Virus record (IMG/VR): IMGVR_UViG_3300036795_000250
Location: 32,001-96,000 of that record
Origin: a virus
DNA: 64,000 nucleotides
Reading direction: 5' to 3' (one strand)
Shown here in pieces: positions 29,713 through 53,131 of the stretch (position 1 is the stretch's first letter; each line of letters starts with the position of its first letter). Below the pieces are notes generated by a model that saw only the letters and a program-made list of their open reading frames with translations, had not been told where the DNA came from and ran no database searches. A program made the translations under genes and the position numbers.

Positions 29713-30852
29713 CTACATTGCCTGCATTTCGTCCAGAGAGAGCCGGCGCACGGGTATGGGCGTGGGAATGGGAAGCGGGGCTGGCTGGGCCGAGGGGCGC
29801 CCCTTGCTCAGTTGCTCGCTCATCACCACGATCGCCAGTTCGAGCGTGCAGCGCCCGTCATCTCCCAACCGGGCCGTGGTCTGCACCTGCCACAACACCG
29901 TGAGCGCGGCGAGAATCCGATCGGCGCCGATCTGCACGGCTAGGCGCTCGCGGGCCGCCAGCGCGCTGGCTTGGCAGGTCAACCTCGATCCGCCTTTGAG
30001 GACCATCAGATCGCGCAGGCAGCGGACCAGAGCCGTGGTGATCGTCTGTGGGTCGCCGGTCCGGTACAGTTGCTCATCGACCGCGCGCAGTGCGCTCACC
30101 ACATCAGCGTCATACATCGCCGCTATCAGACCAGGGGCGAAGTCGTCCTCACCCAGCACCTCCAGGAACTGTTCCACGGTGCGGATGCCGACCCGGGTGA
30201 CCTGGTCCAGCAGCATGACGGCATCCCGCATCCCACCATCGGCACGCTCAGCGATAAGGCGCAGCAATGGCTTCTCCGCGTCGAGGTTCTCCTGTGTACA
30301 GATGTGAGCCAGCCTGTCTGTCATGTCGTGTACGGTCAGGCGCCGGAAGTTGAACGTCATGCAACGGCTCAGCACCGTATCTGGTATCCGCCGTAGCTCT
30401 GTGGTGAGTAGAACGAAGACATTGTCGGGAGCGGGTTCTTCGAGCATATTGAGCAGTACGTTAAAGGCGTCCCGACGCAGAGACTGACATTCGTCGAGGA
30501 TCACCACTCGCTTGCGCCCGTTGATGGTATAACGCACAGTCTCCCGGAGCGCCCGGATGTCGTCGACCAATCCGTTGGACGCACCATCGATTTCCAGCAC
30601 GTCCAGCGATTTTCCCTGCAACACCGCCACACAGGACACGCAGGAGCCGCAGGGACCGGGCGTCATGTCGCAGTTGAGGGCCGCGCCGAGGATGCGAGCG
30701 CTGGAGGTCTTGCCGAGGCCAGCGGCCCCTTCAAACACCATGGCCGCTGGGATGGATTCCTTGATAGCCATCTGGCGCAGGATCAATGACACTGATCGCT
30801 GGCCCACTATCTCACCAAAGCCGGAAGGGCGATATTTGTTCGCCAACAACAT
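29713..30852 (-). CDS. dnaX: DNA polymerase III clamp-loader ATPase (gamma/tau), gamma-length
   Basis: LANKYRP..GEIVGQ, GLGKTS, PCGSCVSC, EIDGASN, ILDECQ, EEP, SRC motif, DGGMRDA. Confidence 0.95.
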   Translation of the reverse strand: MLLANKYRPSGFGEIVGQRSVSLILRQMAIKESIPAAMVFEGAAGLGKTSSARILGAALNCDMTPGPCGSCVSCVAVLQGKSLDVLEIDGASNGLVDDIRALRETVRYTINGRKRVVILDECQSLRRDAFNVLLNMLEEPAPDNVFVLLTTELRRIPDTVLSRCMTFNFRRLTVHDMTDRLAHICTQENLDAEKPLLRLIAERADGGMRDAVMLLDQVTRVGIRTVEQFLEVLGEDDFAPGLIAAMYDADVVSALRAVDEQLYRTGDPQTITTALVRCLRDLMVLKGGSRLTCQASALAARERLAVQIGADRILAALTVLWQVQTTARLGDDGRCTLELAIVVMSEQLSKGRPSAQPAPLPIPTPIPVRRLSLDEMQAM

Positions 30853-30916
30853 CGCGAGGCACGCTCCTTCAATCTGTCACCATCAGCCCGGCTCGCAAGC
30901 TGGCTGCATCGTCACG

Positions 30917-31486
30917 TCACCAGTCGTGAGGTTGCGAACTGGTTCGCAGTTGCCGGTACTGCCGCACAGCACCAGCGCCGTCTTGGCAGAAGTCGATCCA
31001 TGGTTCGATCCTGAGCTGTGTGCCGACGAGCCAGAACCATTCTGCGCAGCCCGCAGCACGCACAGCAGACAGGAAGCTGCCGAAGCCATAGGCACCCACA
31101 GGTCCACGCCATGCTCGGGCTTGAGTCTGTTCGAAAAAGCCTTGCTGATATTCCAGAGCTAATGGTTGATGCTGGCTGGTCAGGTGCTGCTCGATGACCG
31201 CACATATCGGGGTGTAGCTTGACAGCAGCATCGCGTTCAGATCGTCAATCACAGCATCAGCGTGCGCAGCGCCGTCGTACCAGCCTTCCCCGAAGTTGGC
31301 AGGTTCATTGCGATAGACACCAATGAATGACAGTCCACTCGCGAGCCAGTCGTCAATCACGACGGCGTTCGCAGCGCGACCTGGCCGAGACACACCTACC
31401 GAGCCGAACACACCGGCATAGCCAGCAGCTTTTAGCTCTGCTCCACTAGAAAAGGTGTCGGCGTATGCGTAGCGGCCTAGCGACAC
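30917..31486 (-). CDS. DUF1906/Rv2525c-like glycoside hydrolase domain protein
   Basis: LKAAGYAGV, GLSFIGVY, GWYDGAAHA..A, PVGAYG, WFW. Confidence 0.6.
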   Translation of the reverse strand: MSLGRYAYADTFSSGAELKAAGYAGVFGSVGVSRPGRAANAVVIDDWLASGLSFIGVYRNEPANFGEGWYDGAAHADAVIDDLNAMLLSSYTPICAVIEQHLTSQHQPLALEYQQGFFEQTQARAWRGPVGAYGFGSFLSAVRAAGCAEWFWLVGTQLRIEPWIDFCQDGAGAVRQYRQLRTSSQPHDW

Positions 31487-31553
31487 GCCGACACCTCACA
31501 GACCTCTAGCTCTGAAAGACACACCATCTCGAAACTGTTTCACCCGTGCGAGC

Positions 31554-32627: not shown

Positions 32628-33866
32628 TTAACTGCCATGGTAGATCTGCTCCCAGTCGACAGTGGCCGCACAGGTCTTCATGCTCTGGCACCATTCCCAC
32701 GAGGTTTGAACGCGATGGGTGTCAGGGTCGACGATGGACGATGTGCCGGTACACAATTCGCACGGCCGTGGTGGGCATTGCGGAGCTGCAACCCCGTCAC
32801 CGTAGTTGATCGGGATGCCACGCTCGTCGGTCTCCATCTTCCTTGACCTCCCTATCTACTGTCTTCCAGGGACATCAGATGCGCGCAGGCCAATGCCAGG
32901 TCCCGGCACCGTGCGCACGACAGTCGCACAGATCAGGATCGCTACCTACTGGTGTGCCGTCCTGCATTGCTGGGTCGTACCGCACGCCAGTGTTGAAGAA
33001 CAGCCCGGTCGGGTTCTCGACCTTCATCGCCAGGGCGTCGTCGAAGAACCACTCCTCGACCTCACGGATCGGTCGGCCTTCACTCCGATCGAATGAGGGT
33101 GGTTGTTTGATGGACACGGCAATCCACTGGCCTACCTCGGTGACGGTCGCGGCACGACACCGGGAGGTGAACGCTTGTGAGCCATCTGCTCGGATCGGCG
33201 AGCCATGAGAAACGTAATGGACGGCTCGCCCGACGGATGGATTTTGCTCGGTCATCATGGAACCTTTCGCTTCTCGCTATTGCTCTTGGTTGAGTTGGAC
33301 GGTTTTTCGCTTCCAGGACAGGAACTCCGCAGCATCGAACCGTTCGAGCATCGCGGCAAGAGTCGGCTCGATGGACACACCATGCGGGACAATCTCTATG
33401 GCGTAGTCGTCATCTGCCTCGCGGTCCTCAATCGTCACCGACGACTCGCCGGTAGACAGCGTCTCCATGGACAGGTTCCCGCCAGCCGCCTTGAGCGCGT
33501 CATACATCGGCGCACAGGTGTCGGGCACCTGAGCATAGGCAGGGACTCGTTGGCCGTCTGGTGGGCGGTACCACAGCAGTGAGACAATCATGAGGGTCAC
33601 CTCGTTCCTGGGATCAGAGCTCTCAGCAGGTTCTTCTTCAGTACCTGCTCATCCCACAGCTCGATCTGTCCCGGCACTACTTGCGAAGGGTTGAGCGCGT
33701 CGAATGAATATTGGTCGACTGAGCACTGGTCCACTTCCGGACCGTCCTTCCACCACACCACAAGCTTCAAACCAGCAAAGAGCGGGTGCGGCATCTGTCC
33801 TATGAAGACCCAGGTGCCAGTGTGGTTGGTGACACGGACGCCGGGTGTGAGATCAGAAACCTTCAT
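32628..33866 (-). CDS. Run of four small hypothetical genes (32628-32837, 32875-33258, 33277-33600, 33597-33866)
   Basis: Co-oriented, with RBSs or overlaps; 32875-33258 has the common actinophage PSVGRxVHYVS..CRAAxVTEV motif. Confidence 0.55.
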
Positions 33867-34519
33867 ATCTCCTCCACCTGGGTAGTGCCGTCATCGCCAA
33901 GCGCGAACCGATAGCGTTTGTCAGCCACGTCAAGGAACTCATCCTGGTGACTGACCAGGATGATCTGGACCCCGCTCTTGTCGGTCAGGTCTCGTAGGAA
34001 TTCAGCCATCAACGGCACATACTCCTTACTTAAATGGGCGAATGGTTCGTCCAGCACCAACACCGAGTCCCGCCACGCAGGTTTGGAGAGCAGCAACACC
34101 ACCAGCCGAAGCAGGAATCCCACCACTGCGGCGAGTCCACCGCCTCGGGCCGCCATGATGTCGGTGTCGATGACCCGCCCGTCAGTCAGTGTGGAGCGCA
34201 CGATGAACTCCACGCTCGCCTGCTTGCCACGGTGGCTCGTGATGATGTGGAAGGACAGCTCATCGCCGAACACCGTGTGCAGTCCACGAGTGACGAGAGC
34301 CTCAATCTGCGCCTGCGCGGTTGCTTGCCGCTGCTCGCCAATCGTCGAGAGCACCGTCATGACGTGGTCGTAGCGATCGATCTCCGCTTGCAGCTTGACG
34401 ACCTCGCTCTGGATTTCCTTGCCGTGCGATGCCATGTGGCGCGCTTGCCCGGTGAGCTGGTCCAGTTCCCGTTGCATTGCCTGGATTCGGCTGATCAGCG
34501 GTCCTAGTTCGACATCCAT
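33863..34519 (-). CDS. Rad50/SbcC C-terminal half (coiled coil plus ABC signature, Walker B, H-loop)
   Basis: ARGGG, VLVLDEPFAHLS, ILVSHQ; no Walker A. Confidence 0.85.
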   Translation of the reverse strand: MDVELGPLISRIQAMQRELDQLTGQARHMASHGKEIQSEVVKLQAEIDRYDHVMTVLSTIGEQRQATAQAQIEALVTRGLHTVFGDELSFHIITSHRGKQASVEFIVRSTLTDGRVIDTDIMAARGGGLAAVVGFLLRLVVLLLSKPAWRDSVLVLDEPFAHLSKEYVPLMAEFLRDLTDKSGVQIILVSHQDEFLDVADKRYRFALGDDGTTQVEEI

Positions 34520-35659
34520 CTATGTGATCCAGTCACTTGACATTTGTTGGATGACGCCGACCGTGCCCGCGTCGTCATCACGCAGCATCAGCGGAGCCTT
34601 CTTCGTCTTGCTGCTGTTGCCGAGCTTGAAGAGACAACTGACGCCGGACTGCGATTGCAGTAGCTCCACGAGGCGCAGGTGGTTCAGGATCAACTCTTGA
34701 TCCTTGCTGTCCCACACCACCGTCAGCGCCTCCTGCGCGCTGTTGCCCTGCTTGTCGGACGAGCTGATCGTCAGCGTGCCGGGTGTGAGCGCCAGGCGCA
34801 CCGCGCTGGTCTCGGGATCGGCATTCACTCGTACCCGTTTGATCGCATCGATCAACTCCTGGCGGCCCAACTCCAATGGGTACCTGTTCTCTAACGCCGG
34901 GCGTAGCAACAGATGCTCGACGTCCGGGAAGCGGGTCATCAGCTTCCTGAGGACGAAGACATCAGCGCCGATCCGGAAGGCGCAGTGGCGTTCGCCGGTT
35001 CCGATTTCTAGCTCGGTAGACTCACTGCTCCGCAGCAACTTGCTCAGGTCATCGACCGCGTTGGCCGGGATCTGGAGCGAGAGCGGGAACTCCAGGACGC
35101 TCGCTTGCTGGAACCGCAGACCGTCGCACGCGGTCAGCCGACTATGGGCAATGTCGATCATCATCAGCGCGATGCGCTCGATGTTCTTGCTCACCGCCCC
35201 GCGCACCGAGGCAAGAGCGGTCAGGAAGCGCGCTCGGTCGGTGGTCGCCCAGACCATGGTGTCCAGGTCCGGCAGCGGTGGGTAGTCACGTTCCTGGGTA
35301 AGCCGCACCGTCCAGCGGGCCCGGCCGATGCGGATCTGCGCGGTGCTGTCGGCCACCTCGATCTCCACGGTGCCGGCCCGCGCCCCGGCCGAGCGCATGA
35401 TCTCCATCATCCGCTTGGCGGGCACCAGCACCGTGCCACCGTGGCTGACCTCGGCCACCGTGGTCGACACGAGCATGGATTGCTCCAGGTTGCTGGCGAG
35501 CACCTGCACCTGGTTCGCAGATCGCTCGGTGCTGCCAGCTGTCAGTTGGAAGTTCTTCAACACCGGCAGCAGTTCCTTGGTCGTCACGACCACGAACGCC
35601 TTTTCCAGGAGGGCATGCAGCGCCCCACTGTCAGCGCAGAAGAACAGGTCGGTGCTCAT
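34520..35659 (-). CDS. dnaN: DNA polymerase III beta sliding clamp
   Basis: 379 aa; LPVLKNF, ASNLE, DYPPLP, ACDGLR, RFPDVE..L, LIDAIKRV. Confidence 0.9.
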   Translation of the reverse strand: MSTDLFFCADSGALHALLEKAFVVVTTKELLPVLKNFQLTAGSTERSANQVQVLASNLEQSMLVSTTVAEVSHGGTVLVPAKRMMEIMRSAGARAGTVEIEVADSTAQIRIGRARWTVRLTQERDYPPLPDLDTMVWATTDRARFLTALASVRGAVSKNIERIALMMIDIAHSRLTACDGLRFQQASVLEFPLSLQIPANAVDDLSKLLRSSESTELEIGTGERHCAFRIGADVFVLRKLMTRFPDVEHLLLRPALENRYPLELGRQELIDAIKRVRVNADPETSAVRLALTPGTLTISSSDKQGNSAQEALTVVWDSKDQELILNHLRLVELLQSQSGVSCLFKLGNSSKTKKAPLMLRDDDAGTVGVIQQMSSDWIT

Positions 35660-36064: not shown

Positions 36065-36901
36065 TCACAGGAGATCTCCGTTCCCGACTAGCGAGGTGGG
36101 TAGCTTGCCGTTGACTGGTTTAAATTTTATGCAGGCATGGTGCACTGGACAGTAGGTGCACCCGGACGTGCCTTGCTTCGGTTCAAAGTCTTGTTGCCAG
36201 ACATCGGTGGCGAATCGGCAGATCCGTGACCACAGTTGTGCCCGGTCGTCATCGGAGATGGTGAAGCCGAGGACCTGTTCGGTACACATGGGCTGGATGA
36301 GCCCGGTCATGTGTGCGTAGTCGCCGAACATCGCGGACAGCGCCAGATCGTAGAACACCAGCTGCGCCATCGTTTTACGCCAGTAGCTCTCGTTGCGGGT
36401 CGCTTTCAGATCCCAGATTCCCCAGTGCCCCTGTGCATTGCGGGTCAGCAGGTCCATCTCGCCCCGAAGATGGATGCAGGTCGGCTCACCCGTCAGCGAC
36501 GGGATCTGCACCGGCACCGTGAATCGCTTGGCCGGCTCATAGTCGTAGGCCAGGACCAGTCTGCGTAGGATCGGCTCCAGCCGACGCACGAGTTCCGTGC
36601 AGAACTCACGAAGCTCACTGCGGTCGCTGCGCGACTTCCACCGGACCACACCATCTCCGGTCTCCAGCGACTCTTTCTCACACGAGACGATGAAGTCATC
36701 GACCATCGTGATCATCGCGCCAGGGGTCTGCTCCGGCTCCATCAGCCACGCGCGCATGATCCGATCGGCTACGGTGCCGTGGAAGAAGGGGCGCACGTCT
36801 TTGGACGGGTTCCGATGCCCGGTCCTGAACAGCATGCCTTGTTGCTTGCAGAACTCGTGTGCTTGCAGGCTGCTCCACGAGATCGAAAGAGGTTCCATCA
36901 C
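36065..36901 (-). CDS. PD-(D/E)xK RecB/Cas4-like exonuclease
   Basis: ISWSSL..C, FHGT, LRGEMDLL, IWDLK, QLVFY, terminal CTYCPVHHAC. Confidence 0.87.
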   Translation of the reverse strand: MMEPLSISWSSLQAHEFCKQQGMLFRTGHRNPSKDVRPFFHGTVADRIMRAWLMEPEQTPGAMITMVDDFIVSCEKESLETGDGVVRWKSRSDRSELREFCTELVRRLEPILRRLVLAYDYEPAKRFTVPVQIPSLTGEPTCIHLRGEMDLLTRNAQGHWGIWDLKATRNESYWRKTMAQLVFYDLALSAMFGDYAHMTGLIQPMCTEQVLGFTISDDDRAQLWSRICRFATDVWQQDFEPKQGTSGCTYCPVHHACIKFKPVNGKLPTSLVGNGDLL

Positions 36902-37911
36902 GCTGCCCCGTGTAATAGCTCCATGATGAGCTGCTCGGTCTCATGTCCCAGTTGCAACGAGCGGACGTGCTCCATCACAGACTCGATGCTGGTGATCTCG
37001 ATGGTTGCTTCACCGATCGACGCCAAGAACTGGTCCAGATCGACCTGGGTTTGTTTCTTCTGTGCTGCCTCGGTCAGCTTGAACACCTCATCGATGGGTT
37101 TCGCGTCCAGCGGGACACGGGTAAACCGCCCGGCCACTGTGTCCCACTCGGTAGCGACGATCTCCCGAGTCAGGTTGTATTCGTGCAGGCTGCCCCGGGA
37201 CAGAGCGCCGTTATTGCAGTACCGAACACCGTTGACGACAAACTCGCCCGCAGGCTCATGGATGTGTCCGTAGTAGACCGCGCCTTGGTTACCCATGAGG
37301 TCGGCGAAGACGTCGGTCGGGAAGTGTTCGAACTCCAGTTCCGTACCGGGTCGGTAAAACGGCGCATGGGTGACGATGAGCGCGGGAGCCGAGCCGTCCC
37401 ACCGAGTACGCCAATCGTCCAGCGCGCTTGTGATGACACCGCGCGCGTACGCAGACGGAGTGCCGTCCGAGGCGCGGTCGTTCCAGATCTGGAGCCAGGG
37501 GATGCCGAAGATCGGCAGCTCGACCTCGGTGCGGGCGGCGGGGACGGCAGACCACCCCAGCAAAGGACGTGCGCAGGTCCGCAGCAGCACACCTAAGGGC
37601 TGGCTGTCCAGGACGCTCTCGCTACGGTCATGGGCCATATCGTGATTGCCCATGACGATGTAAAAAGGGCATGGGTAGTCGCTGATCAGTTCGATCGATC
37701 GCTGTATGAGCCGATGGCTGGTGCGGGCCGGGATCTTGGAGTGGAAGAAGTCGCCCGCCTGCACCACGGCCGCGTAATTCCGGCTCCGCGCGAGGTCGAC
37801 GGTTTGCCGCAGCAGAGCGAACAGATCATCGAGGTAGGTGTCCGTGCAGGAAGATGGTGGCCGGTCGGCCAAGTGCAGGTCACCGAGCAACAGAACCGTG
37901 CTCATCCTCAC
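36898..37911 (-). CDS. Mre11/SbcD metallophosphoesterase nuclease
   Basis: GDLHL, AGDFFH, GNHD, VTH, YGHIH, NNGALSR. Confidence 0.9.
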   Translation of the reverse strand: MRMSTVLLLGDLHLADRPPSSCTDTYLDDLFALLRQTVDLARSRNYAAVVQAGDFFHSKIPARTSHRLIQRSIELISDYPCPFYIVMGNHDMAHDRSESVLDSQPLGVLLRTCARPLLGWSAVPAARTEVELPIFGIPWLQIWNDRASDGTPSAYARGVITSALDDWRTRWDGSAPALIVTHAPFYRPGTELEFEHFPTDVFADLMGNQGAVYYGHIHEPAGEFVVNGVRYCNNGALSRGSLHEYNLTREIVATEWDTVAGRFTRVPLDAKPIDEVFKLTEAAQKKQTQVDLDQFLASIGEATIEITSIESVMEHVRSLQLGHETEQLIMELLHGAA

Positions 37912-38110: not shown

Positions 38111-39040
38111 CTATCCCTCCACCGGCCTGCCGCAGGTCGGACATGTGCCTGCATTCACCAGCGCCGCGTGCAGCGCAGCGTGCTCCTCTTGTTCCCGCTG
38201 CTGCCAATGCAGCAGGCTCGCTTGGTACGTCACCGCGCTCTGCTGTGCTTGTCTGATGGTCGTGGTCAACTGGAGGCAGGTATGCAGTTTCCTCTGTGCC
38301 GCGTTGACCTCGTCCATATCCGGCACCGTGCGAACAACACGATCAGCGAGCACCGTCTCCGCAGCGCGCGCGGCATCAAGCAGCCGGGTCAATTTGCTGG
38401 TCTCGCTCTGCAACGCCTCGGCGCTGCGCGCGAGGCGCCCAAGCTCGGCGACGCGATGCACGCGCTGCGGGAGATCCTGAAAGGACTGAAGTTGGGCGCG
38501 GAGCCCGTCAAGGTCCTGCTGGCGCACTTTCAACGTGCTCTGCGCACTGAGCCGACGCCGGTTGGCCTCCCGTGCCGCGTCAAAGATGATGCTGACATTG
38601 GTCAGAGCGCCCAACACTCGGGCCACGGTGCCTCCTGACTGGGTCAGCAGATAGGGACGGTCGAACTGGCCGGCGACGTTCAGCGATGAGCCCTCATCGT
38701 CGGCCGGAATGCCCAGCGCCGTCGTCACCGCCTCGGGGACAGCGCCCGCCAGCTTCGTGAACACCAACTCCTCGCCGCCGATGTTGAGCCGGTACGCGCC
38801 ATGATTCTCGCTGCGCTCGATGGTGGCGATCGTGTCCTCGAAATGCAGGCTCACCGAGGCAGCCTTGGCGCCATGACTGATGTAGGAGGTCCCGCGCGCG
38901 TTGCAAATCAGCATCCGCAGCGCACGGATCAGTGCGCTCTTGCCGCTCGACGACGGGCCCACGATCACCGTGAGCCGCCCCAGGCCCAGCTCGACCTGAC
39001 GCAGCGACTGGTAGTGCTGGACCCGAAGCCGTTCCCACAT
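38111..39040 (-). CDS. Rad50/SbcC N-terminal half ending in a zinc hook
   Basis: LRVQHYQS, IVGPSSSGKSALIRAL (Walker A), Q-loop AGQFD, coiled coil, C-terminal CPTCG. Confidence 0.87.
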   Translation of the reverse strand: MWERLRVQHYQSLRQVELGLGRLTVIVGPSSSGKSALIRALRMLICNARGTSYISHGAKAASVSLHFEDTIATIERSENHGAYRLNIGGEELVFTKLAGAVPEAVTTALGIPADDEGSSLNVAGQFDRPYLLTQSGGTVARVLGALTNVSIIFDAAREANRRRLSAQSTLKVRQQDLDGLRAQLQSFQDLPQRVHRVAELGRLARSAEALQSETSKLTRLLDAARAAETVLADRVVRTVPDMDEVNAAQRKLHTCLQLTTTIRQAQQSAVTYQASLLHWQQREQEEHAALHAALVNAGTCPTCGRPVEG

Positions 39041-40134
39041 CAGACGGAGGGCAGCAGTTGGCGACAGGAGTCGCAACGGCCGGCCACTGCGTAGGGCAAT
39101 TGGCCACCGATCGTCATCAACCGATCCGCCGTCTCGGGGCTCACGTCAGCCTGATTCGCCACGGCGGTCACCGCCTGCATCACGCTGTACATGGACAGGT
39201 TCGTCTCGTCGACCATGGAGTTGATGATCGCGGTGCGCTGCGGCACTGGCACGCGGAATCGGGTGAACACGTCGCGCAGCACATCCACCGTCTCTCCCTG
39301 GATCGAGGTGTCTGCCATTACCTGCACCGCGTCCAACGAGGACTCCAGGCCGCCCAGCACGCCGTCCACCGCCGCTCGCGCCCACTCATAGACTTCCTCG
39401 CTCTGCCCGGCCCGCCGGGACCACGTGCCGCTGCTGGCGTGCGTATCGATAGAGCCGTTCGTGCACCAAAACCGGAACAAATAGCCGTCGATGCTGGTCG
39501 GGTGCTCACCAGACAAGGAGTTCAGGATCTGGAGACCGACCGACCACGAGTCATTTTCGGTCCCGGTCCGCTCGATCACCCGCTGCTTCTCGGGGATGAT
39601 CAGACGCAGCCGGGTGGTGCGCAAGGTGTGCTGGAACTTGGACTTGTCCACCAGCACCTCGCCCACACCGTATTTGTCCTCGATCCCTTGGAGTACCTCG
39701 GACACGAGCCGCTGGTTGCTGAAGGGCAGCAGCGAGTCCTTGCTGACGGCCAGCACCGTGTCCTCGCGCGCGAGGGCCTTGTACTTCGTCGGCATGTGGT
39801 TGTCGCTGTACCAGTAGTTCAGCTGCGGCTCGATCAGCGCGGCCGGGGTACGCAGGGTATAGGCCCGAGGCAGACCGCAGGCGCTGGTCGTCTCCAGCGC
39901 GGCATCCTTGGTCAGCTGGTACTCGCGCCGTCCAATGGAGACGTAGGCATCGACCCGAGCCAAACCATCGGCCGCCTCCAGGGCGTGGTTCCAGCCCGGC
40001 TCCAGCCGGAACCGGACGGGTTCCGTCGGCACCGTGAAGGGCACCGTGGTTAGTGGCTCGGTGGTGGCGAGGATCTCGCGAGTCTGCGCTAGCGAGAGCA
40101 TGCGCCCCCGGACATCGTCGATCGTGTAGGTCAT
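39040..40134 (-). CDS. DUF932-family protein
   Basis: VGLQILNSLSG..IDGYLFRFWCTNG, MYSVMQAVT. Confidence 0.7.
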   Translation of the reverse strand: MTYTIDDVRGRMLSLAQTREILATTEPLTTVPFTVPTEPVRFRLEPGWNHALEAADGLARVDAYVSIGRREYQLTKDAALETTSACGLPRAYTLRTPAALIEPQLNYWYSDNHMPTKYKALAREDTVLAVSKDSLLPFSNQRLVSEVLQGIEDKYGVGEVLVDKSKFQHTLRTTRLRLIIPEKQRVIERTGTENDSWSVGLQILNSLSGEHPTSIDGYLFRFWCTNGSIDTHASSGTWSRRAGQSEEVYEWARAAVDGVLGGLESSLDAVQVMADTSIQGETVDVLRDVFTRFRVPVPQRTAIINSMVDETNLSMYSVMQAVTAVANQADVSPETADRLMTIGGQLPYAVAGRCDSCRQLLPSV

Positions 40135-40169: not shown

Positions 40170-41549
40170 TTATGCTTGGGGGTCTGTCGTGATGAGTAGC
40201 CCTGCCAACTCATCGGGATCGGTAATCACCTTGCTCGGCTTACTGGCGACGCGAGCCGGCGCTGGTGCCACGTCATCAGAAGCGGAGTCCTCCTCAACGG
40301 ACACCAGGAGGTCGTTGAGAGCGGAACGGTGCGGCGGTTGCACCGACGGCTCGTCCTCCACCTGCCAGTCGATGTCTCCACCGGTCGTCAGCGACGTCAG
40401 CTCATCGCCGCTCAGCGGCTCGGGGTGGATTGCGGCCTGAACCTCGGCGGGCTGGATGACCAACTCCCGAGCCATCGCGATGGCTTTCCAGCGCCATGCC
40501 GGGTGTGCGTCCGCATAGGACAGAATGTTCTCTTCACCTCGGACATAGAACCGGCCGATGCTGGTCTGGTCCATGTCTGCTGCGGCTAGCGTCTGGTCGT
40601 TCATGTAGTAGTAGCCGCTAGACAGCTTGATGTTGCCGTAGGCCACCAGCACTTGCAGCGCCGACCACAGCTCGTCGAACCCCTGCCCATAGCGGATACG
40701 GATCTCCGCCTCGCGGAACGGCACGCCAACTTTGTTCTTTACTGCCTTGACTTTGACCTGGGTTGATAGAGGGCGCTCGACATAGGCGTCATGGAGGGCG
40801 TCCCACACCTTTCCCTTAATCGTCTTGATCTGGCGGTACTCCAAGCGCAGGCTGGCGTAGTACTTCAGGGCCTTGCCGCCCGAACTGGTGACCTTCGGAG
40901 GCAGCCCGGGTCGCCCGCCGACCATCGCCACTTCTTCCATCAGGTGGTTCAGGAAGACCGCGCACGACGCCGTTTCGGAGAGCATCGCGTTGAGCAGCCG
41001 GAGCAAGCCGGCCAGCAGCCGTGCTCGGTTCATCGCGCTCGTGCGCTGATCGAATGACCCGTCCTCGATGGACGCGGGCGTCATCGCCGCCACCGAGTCC
41101 CAGATGGACATCCGTACCTGACCCGTCGGGATCAGCTTGAGGGCCACCTCGGCGCCTTCTTCCAGCCACGCCGGCTGGACCAGAAGGAAGCTCGGGTGCT
41201 CCACATCCAGACCCAACGCTTTGCTGTAGTTGAGATCCAATGCGTGTTCGTAGTCGAGATAGAGGATGTACTCCTCGCGTCCCGACGTGATGATGTCTTG
41301 CTGCAATCGAGCTGCTGCTTGAAGCGCTGTTGTGCTCTTCCCTGACGAGGGCAGCCCGTAGAGCTCCGTGATGCGACCCAGCGGTATGCCGCCCACGGCG
41401 GAGACGTAGTCGACCGCGATGTTCCCGGTCGAGGTCGCCTGCACCGGGCGCACCACGTCGCTGAACGTGCCAATACGCAGGTTGGACTTCTTGGCGATGT
41501 CCTTGATCAGTGAGGCAACAGAAGGGCTCGACTCGGATACCAAGTTCAT
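40170..41549 (-). CDS. recA: RecA-like recombinase with acidic C-terminal extension
   Basis: GGIPLGRITELYGLPSSGKST, YLDYEHALD, WDSVAAM, SSGGKALKYYASLRL, KNKV. Confidence 0.95.
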   Translation of the reverse strand: MNLVSESSPSVASLIKDIAKKSNLRIGTFSDVVRPVQATSTGNIAVDYVSAVGGIPLGRITELYGLPSSGKSTTALQAAARLQQDIITSGREEYILYLDYEHALDLNYSKALGLDVEHPSFLLVQPAWLEEGAEVALKLIPTGQVRMSIWDSVAAMTPASIEDGSFDQRTSAMNRARLLAGLLRLLNAMLSETASCAVFLNHLMEEVAMVGGRPGLPPKVTSSGGKALKYYASLRLEYRQIKTIKGKVWDALHDAYVERPLSTQVKVKAVKNKVGVPFREAEIRIRYGQGFDELWSALQVLVAYGNIKLSSGYYYMNDQTLAAADMDQTSIGRFYVRGEENILSYADAHPAWRWKAIAMARELVIQPAEVQAAIHPEPLSGDELTSLTTGGDIDWQVEDEPSVQPPHRSALNDLLVSVEEDSASDDVAPAPARVASKPSKVITDPDELAGLLITTDPQA

Positions 41550-41556
41550 CGCCTTC

Positions 41557-42026: not shown

Positions 42027-43121
42027 CTAGGCGTCGAGCTGGTTCAGCAGATCATCGAACGACAACGGGGCCGCTGCGATGGCGGGTGACGGGCTCGCTG
42101 GAGCTGGGCTCGCAGACGCGGCTCCGGGTGCTGCCGACGGTGCCGACGGAGCTAGCTCCGTGCTCGGTACACCGGCCGTGGCATCCTGCACGGCGGCGAA
42201 ACCGGCGCCCGCAGGGTCGGTTGCCGTGCTGGCCGCGTCCTGCCCGCCTGTGAGTAACGTGGAGAAGTCTTCGGTACGCGGCGGGCTCGGTGCGAACTCG
42301 TCCAGGCCGCCAGGGTGATCCTTGAGCAACGCGTCCAGACCCTCGGTGAGAGACTCCGCGCTCTGCGTGGCGTCCTGCTCCGGCTGGCCGTTCACGATGC
42401 GCCAACGCGCCTGCACCTTCTCTAGGTCCTCGATCATCCAGGAGCGCTCGACCTTGCGGCCACAGAACGCCTCCAGGTTCGGAGCCTTGTTCTCCCGGAA
42501 CGTCTGGAGGACGTTGGCCTTCTGCTCTTCGCTGTCCTGCCAGGCGGCCTTGGCCGAGATAGCGATGTCGAACTTCTGGAAGTCACCCGAGAGACAGGGG
42601 CCCAGGAGCAGATCGTGATTCTGGAGGCTGCCCCACTCCGCGACAAAGTCGACCAGCTTGTTGAAGATCGAGTCCGGGAAGGCCCACACCATCAACTGGC
42701 AGGAGAACGGCGAGGCGAGGTCGAAGCCGCCGCCGGTCGATTTGAGGGTGTACCGCACGACGTGCATGGCGAAGCGACGCTCGGGCGGAGATGCCATATC
42801 CGACGTGCTGGCCAGTGCGCACACCGGACAGTTCTTCGGATCGGTTCCCTTGTCCTCCAGAATGCCTTCATCACCGAGGCAGAGCGGCCGGCCGATGAAG
42901 TCCATCTTCAGGACCTCACGAGACTCGCCGCTCTTGGTCTCCACGGGCACGTATTTGGGCTGGCCGTTCACGATGGTCGGCGCGCGCAGCGTGTGAACGA
43001 AGGCGAACGCTGGTTCTTCCGGGCACAGAATCCGGGCCCGTTCATCCTTAGCCAGCTTCAGCTTAGGATAGTCGGACATGCTCGTATTCTTGTTCTTAGC
43101 CTCAAAGCTCATTTGGCGCAT
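42027..43121 (-). CDS. gp32-like single-stranded DNA-binding protein
   Basis: KLKLAKDERARI, CLG..CPVC Zn site, acidic tail PLSFDDLLNQLDA resembling the T4 gp32 tail; next to recA/endoVII. Confidence 0.65.
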   Translation of the reverse strand: MRQMSFEAKNKNTSMSDYPKLKLAKDERARILCPEEPAFAFVHTLRAPTIVNGQPKYVPVETKSGESREVLKMDFIGRPLCLGDEGILEDKGTDPKNCPVCALASTSDMASPPERRFAMHVVRYTLKSTGGGFDLASPFSCQLMVWAFPDSIFNKLVDFVAEWGSLQNHDLLLGPCLSGDFQKFDIAISAKAAWQDSEEQKANVLQTFRENKAPNLEAFCGRKVERSWMIEDLEKVQARWRIVNGQPEQDATQSAESLTEGLDALLKDHPGGLDEFAPSPPRTEDFSTLLTGGQDAASTATDPAGAGFAAVQDATAGVPSTELAPSAPSAAPGAASASPAPASPSPAIAAAPLSFDDLLNQLDA

Positions 43122-43742: not shown

Positions 43743-44095
43743 TTCGTGGCCCCCACGTATTTAGCAGACAACCTGTCCCACAACGCACGATGTGCAGCCA
43801 GCAGTTGTTTGATAAGAGGGTCATTGCCAGGCAGATCGAGCCGCACTTTCTGCTCCATGGTGAGCAGCAGTTCGGCTTCCTGCTCCAGGAGTTGCCACAC
43901 CTCACGCACCGCTAGTTGGGACGCTGCGGTGCCCGGCAGCTTCTCGGCCAGCATGCGTGCGAGATCCTCTTCGTCCAGGGTGATATCGATCTTGTGATAC
44001 TGGCCGTTCGCGGTTTGCACCGTCACGGCACGTCGCCATCGCATGCAACAGCCTCCAAGAGGTTGGTGGACAAACCCACGATCACGACCGAGCAA
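43739..44095 (-). CDS. Hypothetical protein
   Basis: Between polA and next gene; start uncertain. Confidence 0.5.
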   Translation of the reverse strand: MLGRDRGFVHQPLGGCCMRWRRAVTVQTANGQYHKIDITLDEEDLARMLAEKLPGTAASQLAVREVWQLLEQEAELLLTMEQKVRLDLPGNDPLIKQLLAAHRALWDRLSAKYVGATN

Positions 44096-46424
44096 GCTCT
44101 GACGACGCCATCACGACGGTGGCCTGGCCGAACAGTTCGGCGACGTCGGCCTCATGTGCTGCGCCGAGCCCGGTACGATGCTTCTCCAACAGAATGGTCC
44201 CGCCTGGGGTACGCAACTCGACAACATTGCGCCCCGGAATGCTATCGAGCAGTGCCAGGAATTGAGCCCATGTTGTCTGGTCGGGCATCTGCTGCAACTC
44301 GACAATCACACACTCGGTCTGCGGCAATGGTGTGGTACTCGGTGTAGCCGGGTCTGCGGCAGCGTCTACAGCGGTCTCCGGATTGTCCTCGGTGATAGGC
44401 ACCTCAGGCTCCTCCACCTTCTTCTTGCCGTCAACCACACGCCACACGCCGGCCGGATCCTTCTTCAGGTGGTGCACTGAACCCCACGTTGCGCCGATGT
44501 ACCAGTCCGCTGCCATCTGCGGCCAGCCATTGATCGGGAATATCACGGCTGGTTCCAGTACGTCGATAACCTGCTGCGGGGACAGTGATTTGTGCACGTA
44601 GAAGTTGAGCGCGTCATGGATGTTCATGACCAGGTGTACTCGGTCCATCAGACCAGCTCGCACCAAGACCTTACGAGCGCGGACCATCGCCGCTTTGGGA
44701 ACGTCTCCGGTCGCCGAGGACTGGATCGGATAATTGATGCACGCCCGCTCGCCCTTGTTGTAGATCCAGCGCTCGGTCGAGCCGAACTCCCAGATAGGAC
44801 AGTGCCTGCCGAAGTGGGAGAGCACATAACCATTAGCCTTGCCAAACGCGATCTGGCCATCAGCCCATTGAGAGATATGCGGGTAGGACGCGTGGAACTG
44901 GCTGAACAGCGGCTGTGCTTCCGCGACCGGTATCCCCAGCCGTTCCGCCAGCGACTGCACCTTCATGCCATAGTCGACCGCGAAGTTCAACATCTTCCCC
45001 AGAGAGCGCTCCTTCTCACCCACCTGCTCCACAGGAATGCCCAGCATCAGCGATCCGGTCATGACATGCGGGTCGATCCCGCGAGCGAAGGCATCGATGA
45101 GCGCGGTCTCGTGGGCTTCTCCGGCGATGCCGCGTAGCTCGGCCTGCTCGTAGTCGAAGCCGAGGAGGTAGTGATCGGGCGGGGCGACGATGGCGTCACG
45201 GAAGTTCAGATCGAACGTCTCACCCGAGGCCAGTTCGTAGTGGTAGCGCTTCGGCGTGTTCTGATAGTTCGGATCGGAGAGTGCGAACCGGCCGGTGATG
45301 ACGAACATCTGGAGGTGGTCGGGGTGGACCCGACCGTCGGCGGCGTAGGTGAAGTCGCGTTCGTACTTGACCAGGAAATTGTTGATGAGAGTCTTGATTT
45401 CCTTGTAATCCAGGATCTTCCTGACAACAGGGTGCTTCGCAGCCAGTTCCTTGAGCGCCTCTGCGTCGGTCGACATCGTGCGTTCGGCCTTTGGTTTGTT
45501 CCTGGTGCCAGCGGTGTAGTGACTCGTCTTCATACCCAACTGCGTGAACAGGATCTCTTGCAGTTGCTTGGGTGAACCGAGGTTGATCTGTACCGGCTGC
45601 CCAACCATGGCCGACAGCTCTGCCTGGATCTCCGGGTCGAGCTTGGACTGGAACTCTTGGGCGCGTTGCGCCGCTGCGCGCAGGAAACTCCAGTCGTACT
45701 GAACCCCGTGATCTTCCATCTCACACACAACCTGGATGGTTTCCATCTCCAGTTGGTAGACCAGTGACCGTTCGGTCTTGGCCCGGGTGTAGTTCTCGCG
45801 GTGCAGTTGCAGCGTCCACAGCGAGTCTTCACAGGCGTACTCGACGGCTTGTGGCGACAGCTCCAGTACATTGAAGCGCAGTATCGCTCGCTTGTTCTGT
45901 GGCAGATCGGGAAATAACTCCCACAGCTCGATCATGTCGTGCTGAAAGGTCTCCCTGACTAGATACTTCAGACCGTATTTAGCATAGTCGGCTAGCACAT
46001 ACGCTTCGGCCATCGTGTCTGAGTAGACGGGGAAGTAACCGTTGGCCGCACGAACCGCGTCGCCATAGCGACGGTGATCCCAGAGATGCTGGCGGAAGTA
46101 GCGGGACAGGTGTCGCTTTTCGAATTTCGCGTTGTGGGCGACGCCTTTGCCGGAGATGAACCACGGCCACAGCAACTCCGCGACGGCCTGATTGTCTAGG
46201 TTCTCCGCGTCGTCATGGGCGAGTGGAACATAGCGCGCCCAGTGTTCCGAGTTCGTGAAGCTAAAACCGGCGATGAGGGCTGTCTCTGGGTGGAGGGAGA
46301 ATTTCTCACGTGGCGGGCCGAGATATCCCGTCTCGATGTCGAACGCATAGACGTCCTCATCGATACGGTTGATGTGTGTCTCCAACTCATCCAGAGAGGT
46401 GATGACTCCATAGTTCTTCTTCAT
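44082..46424 (-). CDS. polA: Family A DNA polymerase with 3'-5' exonuclease, no 5'-3' exonuclease, extra C-terminal domain
   Basis: ExoI FDIETG, ExoII HNAKFE, ExoIII YACED; NLGSPKQL, TGRFALSDPNYQN, motif A FDYEQAELR, motif B RSLGKMLNFAVDYG, NYPIQS, motif C NIHDA. Confidence 0.95.
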   Translation of the reverse strand: MKKNYGVITSLDELETHINRIDEDVYAFDIETGYLGPPREKFSLHPETALIAGFSFTNSEHWARYVPLAHDDAENLDNQAVAELLWPWFISGKGVAHNAKFEKRHLSRYFRQHLWDHRRYGDAVRAANGYFPVYSDTMAEAYVLADYAKYGLKYLVRETFQHDMIELWELFPDLPQNKRAILRFNVLELSPQAVEYACEDSLWTLQLHRENYTRAKTERSLVYQLEMETIQVVCEMEDHGVQYDWSFLRAAAQRAQEFQSKLDPEIQAELSAMVGQPVQINLGSPKQLQEILFTQLGMKTSHYTAGTRNKPKAERTMSTDAEALKELAAKHPVVRKILDYKEIKTLINNFLVKYERDFTYAADGRVHPDHLQMFVITGRFALSDPNYQNTPKRYHYELASGETFDLNFRDAIVAPPDHYLLGFDYEQAELRGIAGEAHETALIDAFARGIDPHVMTGSLMLGIPVEQVGEKERSLGKMLNFAVDYGMKVQSLAERLGIPVAEAQPLFSQFHASYPHISQWADGQIAFGKANGYVLSHFGRHCPIWEFGSTERWIYNKGERACINYPIQSSATGDVPKAAMVRARKVLVRAGLMDRVHLVMNIHDALNFYVHKSLSPQQVIDVLEPAVIFPINGWPQMAADWYIGATWGSVHHLKKDPAGVWRVVDGKKKVEEPEVPITEDNPETAVDAAADPATPSTTPLPQTECVIVELQQMPDQTTWAQFLALLDSIPGRNVVELRTPGGTILLEKHRTGLGAAHEADVAELFGQATVVMASSELARS

Positions 46425-46432
46425 CACGAACC

Positions 46433-46729
46433 TCACTGCGGAAGATGTGATGCCGCCTGAAACGCGTGCACGATGGCATCCCGATACGGCCGGTCCAGTT
46501 CCTGAACCTGCGCGGACAACTGACCGAACGGGATCAGTGACCTGTGCTGCGGTGCGCTTTGCTCCTGCCAGAGTGACCACGCATCGTGTACGTCTTCCAG
46601 AGTCGTGTCGAGCCCCTTCGTGAGCGCCAGTAACGAATACATTCGCAGTAGCTCAGGCGGCAGGCCAGGCAGTTCCTGATCGATGTGGTCAATGACCGGC
46701 CGAATATAGGTCACCGGATGGGTTGTCAT
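46433..46729 (-). CDS. Small conserved phage protein with RyR-repeat-like motif
   Basis: VHDAWSLW..HRSLIPFGQLSAQVQELD. Confidence 0.6.
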   Translation of the reverse strand: MTTHPVTYIRPVIDHIDQELPGLPPELLRMYSLLALTKGLDTTLEDVHDAWSLWQEQSAPQHRSLIPFGQLSAQVQELDRPYRDAIVHAFQAASHLPQ

Positions 46730-47116: not shown

Positions 47117-47128
47117 GGCTATCTCCGC

Positions 47129-47977
47129 TCAGGTGACCGGAGACGTCCAGGTCGCGCTCCAGGTGATCGGGCCCACCAGACCGTCCACATGCAGACCCTT
47201 CTCCGCCTGGAACTGCCGACACATGCTCCAGCTCTCCGGGCCGAACATGCCGTCCGTGCTGAGGTGCCAGCCGCGCTGCGCCATCCGCGACTGCCATTCG
47301 GCGATTCCGGGACGGTCCCTGGTCCAGAAGCCGCTGTGGTTGTGGGGGTTGGCGGTCTCCGGGCCGTACCAGTCTCCGGCCGGGAGCGGGAATGCGGGCG
47401 CGATCGAGCCCGGTGCGGGCGGCGGGGGTGATACGGGGCTGCCGCCGAAGAAAGTTGCGTACTGTGCCTCGGAGCCCATCCATACGGACTCGTCCACCGC
47501 ACCAGAGATGCCCGGGATCGCGGCGGCGTCGGTGTACTGCCACAACACCTCCCCGTCGGTCGGAGCCGCCCCGCCCCACTTCGCCGACCACAGCAGGCCC
47601 CGGATACCACCGGGCAACGTGCTGGCCGAGCCGTAGGTCATTTCTTCCGGCACCGGTTCGCCGAGCGCGACCAGGAAGGAGTTCATCCATGCCGCGTTAC
47701 CAGACGTCTCCGCATCAAGGACCTTGGCGTCAGCCCCGGCGACCGCGCGGAAGTGGCCAGCTTCGCCACCAGCGTCTCCGAACCGAGCGAAGTGGTACGC
47801 CGCGACCAGAAGCCCGGCAGCCTTCGCTCCCGCACGGTCACCGGAGAAGTCGGGGTTCGTGTAGGTCGTGCCCTCGGTTGCTTTGATCATGACTGCGTCG
47901 ATGCCGGACGCCTTGACGGCAGCCCAGTTGATCGGGTGTGCGTTATTGCCGGACACATCAATGACTCGATGGCTCAT
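47129..47977 (-). CDS. Endolysin: GH25 muramidase plus C-terminal peptidoglycan-binding domain
   Basis: IDVS, IKATEG, AYHFA, LDAE, WQYTD, VD; Pro linker; WQSRM..DGMFGP..FQ..GLHVDGLVGPITW. Confidence 0.92.
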   Translation of the reverse strand: MSHRVIDVSGNNAHPINWAAVKASGIDAVMIKATEGTTYTNPDFSGDRAGAKAAGLLVAAYHFARFGDAGGEAGHFRAVAGADAKVLDAETSGNAAWMNSFLVALGEPVPEEMTYGSASTLPGGIRGLLWSAKWGGAAPTDGEVLWQYTDAAAIPGISGAVDESVWMGSEAQYATFFGGSPVSPPPPAPGSIAPAFPLPAGDWYGPETANPHNHSGFWTRDRPGIAEWQSRMAQRGWHLSTDGMFGPESWSMCRQFQAEKGLHVDGLVGPITWSATWTSPVT

Positions 47978-47987
47978 GTCGCGTTCC

Positions 47988-51069: not shown

Positions 51070-51087
51070 AACTGTTCCCCTTTCCTC

Positions 51088-52026
51088 TCATACCCAGAGC
51101 GTGACGAGGGATTCCAGGACTCCGTCCCGTGCTCCTGCTGCCAGTGCCGCGTCGAGCGTGGCCAGCACCCGCCACCGAGCGCGGCAGTGCTCGCTCGGGT
51201 AGCGGTCGAGCACGGGCAGATATTTCTCCGCCAGGCTGAAGGGCAGATCCGGCAGCAGGGCGATGTCCCGCCGGGACATCCCGGTGTGCACCGCCTCGCG
51301 CAGCTGCGCCATGACGGTCAAGCCGGAATCCAGCTGGCCGACGATGCGCCGGTAGTCCGTGGTAGGCAGCAGCGGGACCAGGCTGTGTGCGACACGACCT
51401 TTCAACAGCATCACCGCATCGGCGAATCGGTCCGTCGGAGCCTCATCGCACAATTCGTCGATGGCCGCAGCACTGGGAGCCTCGTCGAACAGCGCGAGCT
51501 TGCCGCTGACGCTCTTGAGCTGGTGCAAGGATCCCGCGCTGCGCTGTGCCAGGTAGCCCGCCGTGGCATCGGTGAGCGGGACCATGCTCTGTACCCACGG
51601 CACCAGTTCCGACACGGGTGGACGGCGGCACTCCACGATGTGTCCGGCGCGTCGGATCAAGCCGATATGGTCATGGGCTGGCGCCGTAGCCGCGCTGGAC
51701 ACAAACAGTAGGTATGTCATGGGGTTGAGCCGCTTGCGATCGAGCCACCCCGCCAGCGGGTGCCAATCCACCAGTTGCTCCGCGTGCCTGATAGTGACCA
51801 GTCGCGGTACGTCGGCCTGCATGGGGTACTGGTGTGCGGCAGCCCAGATCACCCGGTCCGGCTCGGTGCCAGCGGTCAGACTTACTGAGTCCACCGCACC
51901 GGGTCGCAGTGCCAGGCGCAGCCGGTCGACCAGCTCTTCGACCAGGACCGGCTCGTCGCCGCAGCACCAGGTCACCCGCTTGATGTCGCTCCGGTCTGCG
52001 TGCTGGCACCACTGGTGGAAGTTCAC
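51088..52026 (-). CDS. holA: DNA polymerase III delta subunit (HolA)-like
   Basis: 312 aa; CGDEPVLVEE, RLVTIRHAE, WV..LT..TA.YL....GSL..L....KL, C-terminal LDAAL..G..LESLV; near holB. Confidence 0.75.
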   Translation of the reverse strand: MNFHQWCQHADRSDIKRVTWCCGDEPVLVEELVDRLRLALRPGAVDSVSLTAGTEPDRVIWAAAHQYPMQADVPRLVTIRHAEQLVDWHPLAGWLDRKRLNPMTYLLFVSSAATAPAHDHIGLIRRAGHIVECRRPPVSELVPWVQSMVPLTDATAGYLAQRSAGSLHQLKSVSGKLALFDEAPSAAAIDELCDEAPTDRFADAVMLLKGRVAHSLVPLLPTTDYRRIVGQLDSGLTVMAQLREAVHTGMSRRDIALLPDLPFSLAEKYLPVLDRYPSEHCRARWRVLATLDAALAAGARDGVLESLVTLWV

Positions 52027-52334
52027 GTTGGGCGACCGTTGGGGCTGATGATGCCGCCACTAGGCGGTTGTTGCAGCGGGGCCAGCAGCCGCGTTCGGTT
52101 GGCTTGCTGCGTACCGGCATCCAAGATCTCGGCGATCGCTGTCTCGAAGCCGATCTCAAAGGTCTGGATGTCCTCGTCGGTCAGTTGCAAACGGACCTGC
52201 ATAAATTCGATGAAGCTGTTCAGGCGCAGCATCACCACAGTGGAGCCTTCCAGCGCAACGCCCTGCATCTGAAGCGCCTGCAACTTCTCCCGGTTGGACT
52301 GGCGCAGCGCATTCAGTGGTTCGATCTCGTCCAC
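52023..52334 (-). CDS. Hypothetical protein
   Basis: Overlaps both holB and holA. Confidence 0.55.
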   Translation of the reverse strand: MDEIEPLNALRQSNREKLQALQMQGVALEGSTVVMLRLNSFIEFMQVRLQLTDEDIQTFEIGFETAIAEILDAGTQQANRTRLLAPLQQPPSGGIISPNGRPT

Positions 52335-53131
52335 TAGTGCTCCTCCTCGACAAACGGCTCTATGGCTACGCGAATAGCTAGCGTGTCTCGTACACCTGTC
52401 ACACTGCCCAGCGCTAAAATCATTTTCCGTACAACGGTCTTCTGTTGGGCCATCCCGTATGTTTCAGCCTCGGTAAAGATTCGCCAGTTCCCGGTCGCTG
52501 CTTCATGCAGCCATCGGTAGAGCAACGCCCGAGTAAGTCCGTCGCTGGACTGACACACCCGGTGGAAAAGCCACTGATCATGCGCTGCGATGGCTTGCGC
52601 TAGCCCGAGAACATTTTCCCGAGCGGCCTCGTAGCCCACGATGATCTCGCCCGAGGGCACCGTCCCGGGAGTCAGCGCAGCTGCCGCCGCAGCCGAGCGG
52701 GTGGACATGCCCAGGTCGATGAGGATTTGGGTGACCTGCTTCAGTGGCAGATAGCCACACAGAAAGATCTGCGACCGAGATGTGATAGTGGGCGATGGGT
52801 GGTGCTGTGCCAACAGGATGAACCTCGTGGTGGGGGGTGGCGCCTCCAAGGCTGTCAACAAAATGTTCCACACCGGCTCGCCTGCCGGGAGACGAGTGAG
52901 GATCACCCGCAGAGAGCCTGACGGTGCACCCTGTGCGAAGAGCCGCATGTCCCGCGCGCTGCGGGCCGTCAGCTCATGTTCGTAGATATCCACCGGCCAG
53001 ACACCGTGATGTTGCAGGACATGGTGAGCCAACGTGCTTTTGCCTACATGCGCTGGTCCGATGAGCAGTGAGACCGTAGGCAACTCGGCTTCTAGTGCTT
53101 GACGTACGGACTCATGTCCGATGATGGCCAT
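52334..53131 (-). CDS. holB: DNA polymerase III delta-prime subunit (HolB)-like
   Basis: IIGHESV, LLIGPAHVGKSTLA, NILLTALEAPP..TRFILLA, PTITSRS. Confidence 0.8.
   Translation of the reverse strand: MAIIGHESVRQALEAELPTVSLLIGPAHVGKSTLAHHVLQHHGVWPVDIYEHELTARSARDMRLFAQGAPSGSLRVILTRLPAGEPVWNILLTALEAPPPTTRFILLAQHHPSPTITSRSQIFLCGYLPLKQVTQILIDLGMSTRSAAAAAALTPGTVPSGEIIVGYEAARENVLGLAQAIAAHDQWLFHRVCQSSDGLTRALLYRWLHEAATGNWRIFTEAETYGMAQQKTVVRKMILALGSVTGVRDTLAIRVAIEPFVEEEH

Follow-up and report, generated by a model that had tools for sequence, protein, structure and literature searches.

Phage T4 pairs its family-B polymerase gp43 with a PCNA-like trimeric clamp (gp45) and the loader gp44-62, and the PolA-type gp5 of phage T7 uses host thioredoxin. 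In bacteria such as E. coli and B. subtilis, a gamma3-delta-delta′ loader and the beta clamp serve a family-C polymerase. The window analysed here covers 64,000 bases, from 32001 to 96000, of the 129,193-bp IMG/VR virus record IMGVR_UViG_3300036795_000250, which CheckV rates as 96 per cent complete. The virus is a soil actinophage of 129 kb that probably infects a member of the Pseudonocardiaceae. Within the window it encodes a family-A DNA polymerase (PolA) together with the same four protein families that form the bacterial clamp and loader. As in T4 and T7, a phage polymerase would have a dedicated processivity device at its disposal, but the clamp and loader here are of bacterial type.

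The closest described systems are those of phages Ma-LMM01 and RSL1, which encode PolA, a Pol III beta subunit and a gamma homolog, and in which beta was suggested to make PolA processive (Kazlauskas and Venclovas 2011; PMC3201878). The idea of joining PolA, beta and gamma is therefore not new, having been raised in 2011 for two other phages. In the parts of that paper at hand, only a gamma subunit was found and the loader composition of the two phages was left open. A 2016 survey by the same authors (PMC4889955), in the text at hand, likewise gives only the gamma subunit for phages. Swaps between PolA and PolC in Bacillus phages have also been described (PMC11348598, published in 2024), in a paper that uses none of the words ‘clamp’, ‘DnaE’ and ‘processivity’ in its text. 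Our literature search, which covered titles and the openings of abstracts but not supplementary tables, returned no phage with PolA, beta and a full gamma-delta-delta′ loader. Unlike Ma-LMM01 and RSL1, as far as these sources describe them, the phage analysed here has delta and a candidate delta′ as well, shares the set with at least 34 related genomes, and adds a DnaE.

With confidence only a little better than even, we lean towards the reading that the replicase of this phage lineage is PolA working with its own phage clamp and loader, and that this particular phage has added a captured DnaE1. Under this reading, gamma3-delta-delta′ would load the phage beta clamp on DNA, and the clamp would hold PolA (a proofreading enzyme with no 5′ nuclease and with a lineage-specific C-terminal domain) on the template. 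DnaE1 would have been captured from an actinobacterial host into the variable right arm of the genome, as an add-on to a PolA-based replisome and not as its original core.

Clamp, loader and polymerase genes

The initial annotation placed dnaX and dnaN on the minus strand at 29713-30852 and 34520-35659, and both assignments were confirmed. The dnaX gene encodes a short gamma-type clamp-loader ATPase of 379 amino acids. It matched Pfam DNA_pol3_delta2 (E = 7.9e-30), the ATPase lid domain (E = 5e-11) and, weakly, the gamma3 domain (E = 0.0028), and scored 291 bits against TIGR02397, above the cut-off of 250. A Walker A motif, a four-cysteine zinc module, a DEXX motif and an SRC motif can all be read in the protein. 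DnaX stops after domain III: full-length DnaX models (567-640 positions) align only to about position 365, and the tau C-terminal domains IV-V, which bind DnaB and alpha, are not present. The dnaN gene encodes a beta sliding clamp, also of 379 amino acids, in which the N-terminal, central and C-terminal beta domains of Pfam were all matched. It also matched phrog_947, a processivity factor (E = 1.4e-31), and TIGR00663 (E = 7.7e-26, positions 2-339 of 367), the latter at 91 bits and so under the cut-off of 138.

The holA-like gene (51088-52026, minus strand, 312 amino acids) is the delta subunit, as had been proposed. It matched TIGR01128 (holA) over its full length (E = 1.1e-14), and a profile of 13 holA-like sequences matched B. 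subtilis delta (3zh9_B) in the PDB, again over the full length (E = 2.1e-12). Its AF2 model has a pLDDT of 89, and the top Foldseek matches of that model (3zh9, 8giy_A, 1jqj_C and 1jr3_D, with E from 1.6e-12 to 2e-9) are delta subunits. On its own, the ORF (open reading frame) had no Pfam match, including to PF06144, and no PHROG match. Single-sequence searches of the PDB with delta and delta′ gave no significant match either, and profiles were required for both.

The fourth gene, holB-like, lies at 52334-53131 on the minus strand and encodes 265 amino acids; the source database predicts an identical gene. Its location and its likeness to holB/delta′ stood up, but every model match fell below its cut-off and the gamma/tau family fitted slightly better. 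Its best NCBIfam matches are holB models with E from 2.4e-9 to 1e-3, all far under cut-off, and it matched the clamp loader family phrog_5846 at E = 7e-5. A nine-sequence profile matched gamma/tau structures in the PDB at 1e-13, slightly better than delta′ at 8e-11. Across the family, S118 and R119 of the SRC motif never vary and there is no Walker B acidic pair; two relatives have also lost the P-loop. Such a pattern would be expected of delta′. The AF2 model, built from a three-row alignment, reached a pLDDT of 38, too low for use.

DnaX alone among the clamp and loader subunits passes its curated cut-off. From these matches and folds, the identities of DnaX, DnaN and delta appear well supported, and that of delta′ less firmly so. 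With the same reservation about delta′, the phage possesses a true beta clamp and a full minimal loader of bacterial type, made up of a short gamma-type DnaX, delta and delta′. The likeness to the bacterial loader extends to the motifs kept in DnaX, to a predicted delta fold that fits solved delta subunits, and to a delta′ that keeps the SRC arginine without the Walker B acids. Unlike the bacterial system, the phage DnaX is of gamma length and has no tau domains IV-V, no Pfam delta domain or DnaQ was detected, and the partner polymerase in the relatives is family A and not family C.

The family-A polymerase with its 3′-5′ exonuclease domain is encoded at 44082-46580 on the minus strand (Pfam DNA_pol_A, E = 6.8e-76), and its true start is likely near 46424. 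It matches PRK05755 over model positions 293-855, and the 5′ nuclease domain is absent. About 165 extra residues extend its C-terminus, which carries a lineage-specific domain. This C-terminal domain of roughly 90 amino acids (window 44085-44603; related loci L064-L108) was found in 157 cluster representatives at E <= 0.001. Among the 150 representatives listed, 91 end in a tail of the form [GSDEV]-hydrophobic-x-[LFIVW]; a stricter form, G-hydrophobic-x-hydrophobic, is matched by 67. The tail has the consensus V-D-x-x-x-L-x-x-G-L-x-L. A slightly looser tail pattern is fitted by 26 of 40 related viral PolA loci and the strict one by 13 of the 40; the remaining 14 have no tail-like end, and DnaE was found in none of their records that were searched. 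Bacterial Pol II and Pol IV carry short hydrophobic C-terminal peptides that bind the clamp, and the PolA tail may recall these by analogy.

Related phages

In phage databases, the phage DnaN is best matched by Magritte, a cultured Microbacterium phage (OR553905.1, 133 kb). By local tblastn, the two phages have in common DnaX, DnaN, delta, delta′, PolA, DnaB, RecA, an SSB-like (single-stranded DNA-binding) protein, SNF2, Mre11, portal and terminase. The replication and structural core is syntenic, with protein identities of 30-51 per cent. Magritte differs in having no integrase homolog and no DnaE (tblastn, E <= 1e-3). Four Magritte genes annotated only as ‘ASCE ATPase’ are homologous to DnaX (gp4), delta′ (gp62), delta (gp67) and DnaN (gp247), and their annotation is corrected here. 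For gp247 the label is wrong in kind, as DnaN is no ATPase.

Co-occurrence was examined in three sets of records. Set A consisted of Magritte and six IMG/VR contigs that carry a delta homolog. None of the seven had DnaE (0/7), and PolA, DnaN and DnaX were each present in 6/7, the one miss being a 45 per cent complete fragment. Eight new DnaN-bearing contigs gave six for set B after two under 12 kb were dropped. None of the six had DnaE and three had PolA; the PolA-positive contigs were 72-97 per cent complete and the PolA-negative ones 22-32 per cent. Set C consisted of 25 large contigs out of 76 loci found by PolA alignment, so that PolA was present by construction. DnaN, DnaX and delta were each found in 25/25 (two of the DnaX matches being weak), and DnaE in 0/25.

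Over all sets, none of the 38 related records had DnaE (0/38). PolA and DnaN occurred together in 34/38, comprising every record at least 57 per cent complete plus Magritte. The initial annotation had proposed looking for polA, dnaN, dnaX, holA and holB together without dnaE; among these 34 records, DnaX and delta were present in all that were searched for them. PolB was found in 0/10 records tested, our own genome included. Since the relatives lack DnaE (0/38) and PolB (0/10), PolA is the only candidate phage replicase among them. Judged from these gene contents, PolA, the beta clamp, DnaX and delta are a conserved module in phages of about 120-190 kb. The module also holds the DnaB helicase, a zinc-finger primase-like protein, the SSB-like protein, RecA and Mre11/Rad50.

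DnaX shows one further variation within the group. In six relatives (G016, G017, G025, G026, G029 and G030), the model was matched in two pieces within one frame, 2/3-60/61 and 85/88-352/353, which suggests that this subgroup has replaced or lost the zinc-module region.

The pattern of co-occurrence bears on whether PolA is the client of the clamp at all. The phage clamp and loader could instead recruit the host Pol III, or serve repair, recombination or late transcription, with PolA working clamp-free. Clamps do have non-replicative clients, phage Mu late transcription being an example in the available text of PMC12867686. The module also holds RecA and Mre11/Rad50, and the binding of PolA to the clamp is presumed. 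Against this, the clamp, the loader subunits and PolA occur together in 34/34 sufficiently complete relatives, a full dedicated loader would be costly merely to borrow a host enzyme, and the phage clamp bears only a distant likeness to those of bacteria (91 bits against a TIGR00663 cut-off of 138). We regard this explanation as very unlikely. In the reading that we favour, we infer that the clamp would serve PolA.

The dnaE gene and the right arm

When the whole record was searched for the Pol III alpha domain, there was one match (record 99166-99975), within an ORF at record 98203-101853 that lies 2.2 kb beyond the end of the window. The ORF is dnaE and encodes a Pol III alpha of 1216 amino acids. 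The initial annotation had held PolA to be the only polymerase and had named a dnaE elsewhere in the genome as the finding that would count against its proposal. PolA is indeed the only polymerase in the window, but the genome has this second one, full-length and of DnaE1 type. As the intact DnaE is part of the record, the replisome of this phage is not PolA-only. The earlier proposal, a phage PolA served by its own Pol III-type clamp and loader, survives at the level of the lineage, where the genes co-occur without DnaE, but does not hold in that form for this genome.

DnaE is full length, with PHP, alpha polymerase, finger, HhH and OB domains (five Pfam domains). It scored 1388 bits against the NF004226 equivalog (cut-off 1002), and the model for error-prone DnaE2 fell under its own cut-off. 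QFDLF, which we take to be the canonical internal beta-binding motif, lies at residue 947. Of the 489 columns in which 17 host DnaE1 sequences do not vary, the protein retains 469. An insertion of 24 amino acids (residues 1090-1113, record ~101470-101541) just past the OB-fold match is absent from the same 17 sequences.

The 120 best protein matches of DnaE have 66-73 per cent identity, and the named ones are chromosomal DnaE1 proteins from Pseudonocardiaceae and related actinomycetes. In a maximum likelihood tree of 19 rows, rooted at the midpoint only, the phage DnaE nests in Pseudonocardiales DnaE1, its long branch falling within a Pseudonocardia/Actinoalloteichus clade (support 95/97). It looks like a captured actinobacterial host gene that has since been adjusted to the phage base composition, and we infer that it was added later than the PolA-based module.

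Other phages carry full-length DnaE-like alpha subunits. Those of Saccharomonospora phage PIS 136 and of Streptomyces phages such as Hydra are 65 and 49 per cent identical to this one, so that the phage protein is closer to chromosomal DnaE1 (66-73 per cent) than to either. PIS 136 has a DUF6300-like gene downstream of its DnaE, as here. It differs in that neither PolA nor a clamp or loader is annotated, and a tblastn search with the clamp, loader and PolA proteins of our phage was negative. Its DnaE falls in another host clade of the tree (support 94/96), which suggests a separate capture.

The part of the genome that holds dnaE differs from the rest in its gene content. By whole-proteome tblastn, the core (record 7.6-90 kb) is common to the phage, its relatives G002 and G003, and Magritte, and the right arm (record 95-129 kb) is nearly without homologs in those three, with a single 26 per cent match in G003. 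Genes of actinobacterial type lie at record 101850-104337 and 111105-112493. The neighbours of dnaE are cargo genes of this kind (DUF6300, Methyltransf_19 and HTH_31-DUF5753), and farther along the arm is an FtsK/SpoIIIE-like protein such as occurs in phage PIS 136 and in the conjugative elements of actinomycetes.

Such an arm raises the question of whether it belongs to the phage. If it were a mis-assembly or a flank of host DNA, the phage would truly be PolA-only. The scarcity of homologs in the three relatives and the actinobacterial-type genes (DUF6300, Methyltransf_19, HTH_31-DUF5753, FtsK/SpoIIIE) fit that explanation, as do the assemblies of sequencing run X1, where the middle of DnaE is broken into small pieces amid dnaE reads of other organisms and no single contig spans the gene. 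Yet in that run the 5′ part of DnaE is continuous with its upstream flank, the 3′ part sits on a 28-kb piece that runs downstream, and the pieces bearing the two ends and their flanks have an equal depth of 10.6-12.2 throughout, although X1 may be the source sample and the check is then not independent. A further run, X2, was set aside, as it contained only 7 per cent of the sampled words, in short pieces. Were the join false, the first 1.8 kb of a dnaE would still lie on the left contig with the core. Base composition also speaks against a foreign arm: GC content is 61.3 per cent in the core, 61.9 per cent in the arm and 62.1 per cent in DnaE, and the tetranucleotide correlation between core and arm (0.94-0.96) is near that between the two halves of the core (0.97). 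The record size of 129 kb, at 96 per cent completeness, fits relatives of 124-151 kb, and PIS 136 shows the same pair of DnaE and downstream gene. We therefore consider it extremely unlikely that the arm is foreign to the phage, and give equally little credence to a chimeric join at DnaE itself.

With DnaE accepted as part of the genome, this phage has two polymerases, PolA and DnaE, that could use the clamp. DnaE1 might be the replicase here, with alpha, the phage beta clamp and gamma3-delta-delta′ forming a Pol III-like holoenzyme and PolA filling gaps and repairing. The gene is intact, of the replicative DnaE1 type, strongly constrained and equipped with QFDLF. Actinobacteria have an arrangement in which the PHP domain proofreads; the PHP domain of the phage DnaE fits its family model and no DnaQ-type exonuclease was found (PF00929 had no match in the genome at E <= 0.1), which fits that arrangement. 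PolA, for its part, is without the tail conserved in many relatives. On the other side, all 38 relatives are without DnaE and those sufficiently complete still keep the clamp and loader, so these did not evolve for DnaE. DnaE also sits among variable-arm cargo, and DnaX has no tau domains with which to bind alpha. Pol I-like primer removal is not obvious either, since PolA is without a 5′ nuclease and the search for a FEN gene was negative. The absence of the tail is not particular to this genome, as it is shared by the tail-less PolA of DnaE-lacking relatives (14/40 loci). We think this arrangement unlikely, though we give it appreciable weight.

The preferred reading, a PolA-based replicase to which this phage added DnaE1, faces several difficulties of its own. 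The PolA of this phage ends about ten residues short and lacks the tail common in its relatives, and no frame downstream of the gene supplies one. No E. coli-type clamp-binding pentapeptide was found in PolA; only QEILF, which lies internally at residue 341, fits Q..[LMI][FLW]. By comparison, DnaE has a textbook clamp-binding motif and could be the main clamp client in this phage. The missing tau domains of DnaX, which would couple alpha to the loader, cut either way. Finally, the closest relatives are known only through delta proteins 70-76 per cent identical to ours (on contigs of 130,405 and 38,632 bp); the DnaE protein search returned nothing above 73 per cent identity, which is weak evidence that these two lack it. 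A predicted complex of two copies of DnaN with the last 150 amino acids of PolA, both from G003, scored 0.00 and speaks neither for nor against binding.

A further possibility is that a replicase exchange has been caught midway. PolA of the lineage would ride the phage clamp through its tailed C-terminal domain, and this phage would have lost the tail and captured a host DnaE1 that plugs in through QFDLF. A link between the loss of the PolA tail and the gain of DnaE is speculative, and it is weakened because 14/40 relatives are tail-less and none of those searched has DnaE. We judge an exchange of this kind distinctly unlikely.

Genome context and implications

GC content is about 61-62 per cent along the full length of the record, and a rough gene map gives about 168 ORFs. 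Structural genes lie on the left, the window holds the long minus-strand arm of replication and recombination genes, and the right arm consists mainly of small unknown ORFs. A 16.9-kb megablast query against phage records gave no match.

Three further replication genes had been named in the initial annotation, with mixed outcomes. A DnaB-type replicative helicase of 574 amino acids is present (Pfam DnaB_C, E = 1.4e-22; TIGR00665, E = 7e-23), though at 7045-8769 on the plus strand and so outside the minus-strand arm. The primase zinc finger corresponds to a small protein of 192 amino acids at 57484-58062 (plus strand), which contains the string CPF..H..H...CF.KCGH and is 33 per cent identical to a region of Magritte gp59, annotated as DNA primase; it matched nothing in Pfam and no sequence in the PDB. 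What had been called a gp32-like SSB is a candidate SSB of 364 amino acids (42027-43121, minus strand). Its 36 per cent identity to Magritte gp72, an annotated single-stranded DNA binding protein, is its only support, and no Pfam, PHROG or PDB sequence match placed it in a family. Across the whole record, no DnaQ, FEN, DnaG zinc ribbon, Toprim_4, bacterial SSB or PolB was detected, and PF01807, PF00436 and PF13662 had no match.

Recombination genes share the replication arm. A large ATPase ORF at 40170-41576 (minus strand) is a RecA-type recombinase (Pfam RecA, E = 7.3e-54), and an Mre11/SbcD-type phosphoesterase lies at 36898-37911 on the same strand (Pfam Metallophos, E = 3.9e-11), homologous to Magritte gp228 (MRE11). 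A Rad50/SbcC-like ATPase is apparently split, with an AAA_23 N-terminal half at 38111-39076 and an AAA_21/SMC_N C-terminal half at 33863-34519, both on the minus strand. The halves are about 3.6 kb apart, with Mre11, a PD-(D/E)XK nuclease and dnaN in between, and both have homologs at separate places in Magritte.

A tyrosine integrase is encoded at 23207-24499 on the plus strand (Pfam Phage_integrase, E = 3.7e-16), and because of it we call the phage temperate. Whole-proteome tblastn found no homolog of the integrase in G002, G003 or Magritte, and it looks like a lineage-specific gain. It lies in an island (~17000-27000 of the window) that also holds an Exo_endo_phos protein (20669-21517) and whose genes are mostly without homologs in the same three relatives, one glycosyltransferase-like ORF being the match. 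A sigma-70-like protein with regions 2-4 (5480-6466, plus strand) is flanked by the SNF2 helicase and DnaB. Conserved counterparts occur in G002, G003 and Magritte, with ‘DNA binding protein’ as the annotation there. Within the replication arm, two cell-wall enzymes are encoded on the minus strand at 47129-47977 and 54777-55466; one is a GH25 muramidase with PG_binding_1 and the other is transglycosylase-like with LysM.

In the titles and abstract openings that we searched, there was no characterised replicase that combines a family-A polymerase with a bacterial beta clamp and its own three-subunit loader. The set is complete here and recurs in no fewer than 34 related genomes, among them that of a cultured phage, which makes the clamp-dependence of PolA testable at the bench. 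If an exchange of replicases were indeed under way, a family-C polymerase would be working on a clamp and loader that had evolved to serve one of family A. The genome described here is a natural experiment, with one clamp and loader beside both PolA and a captured DnaE1.

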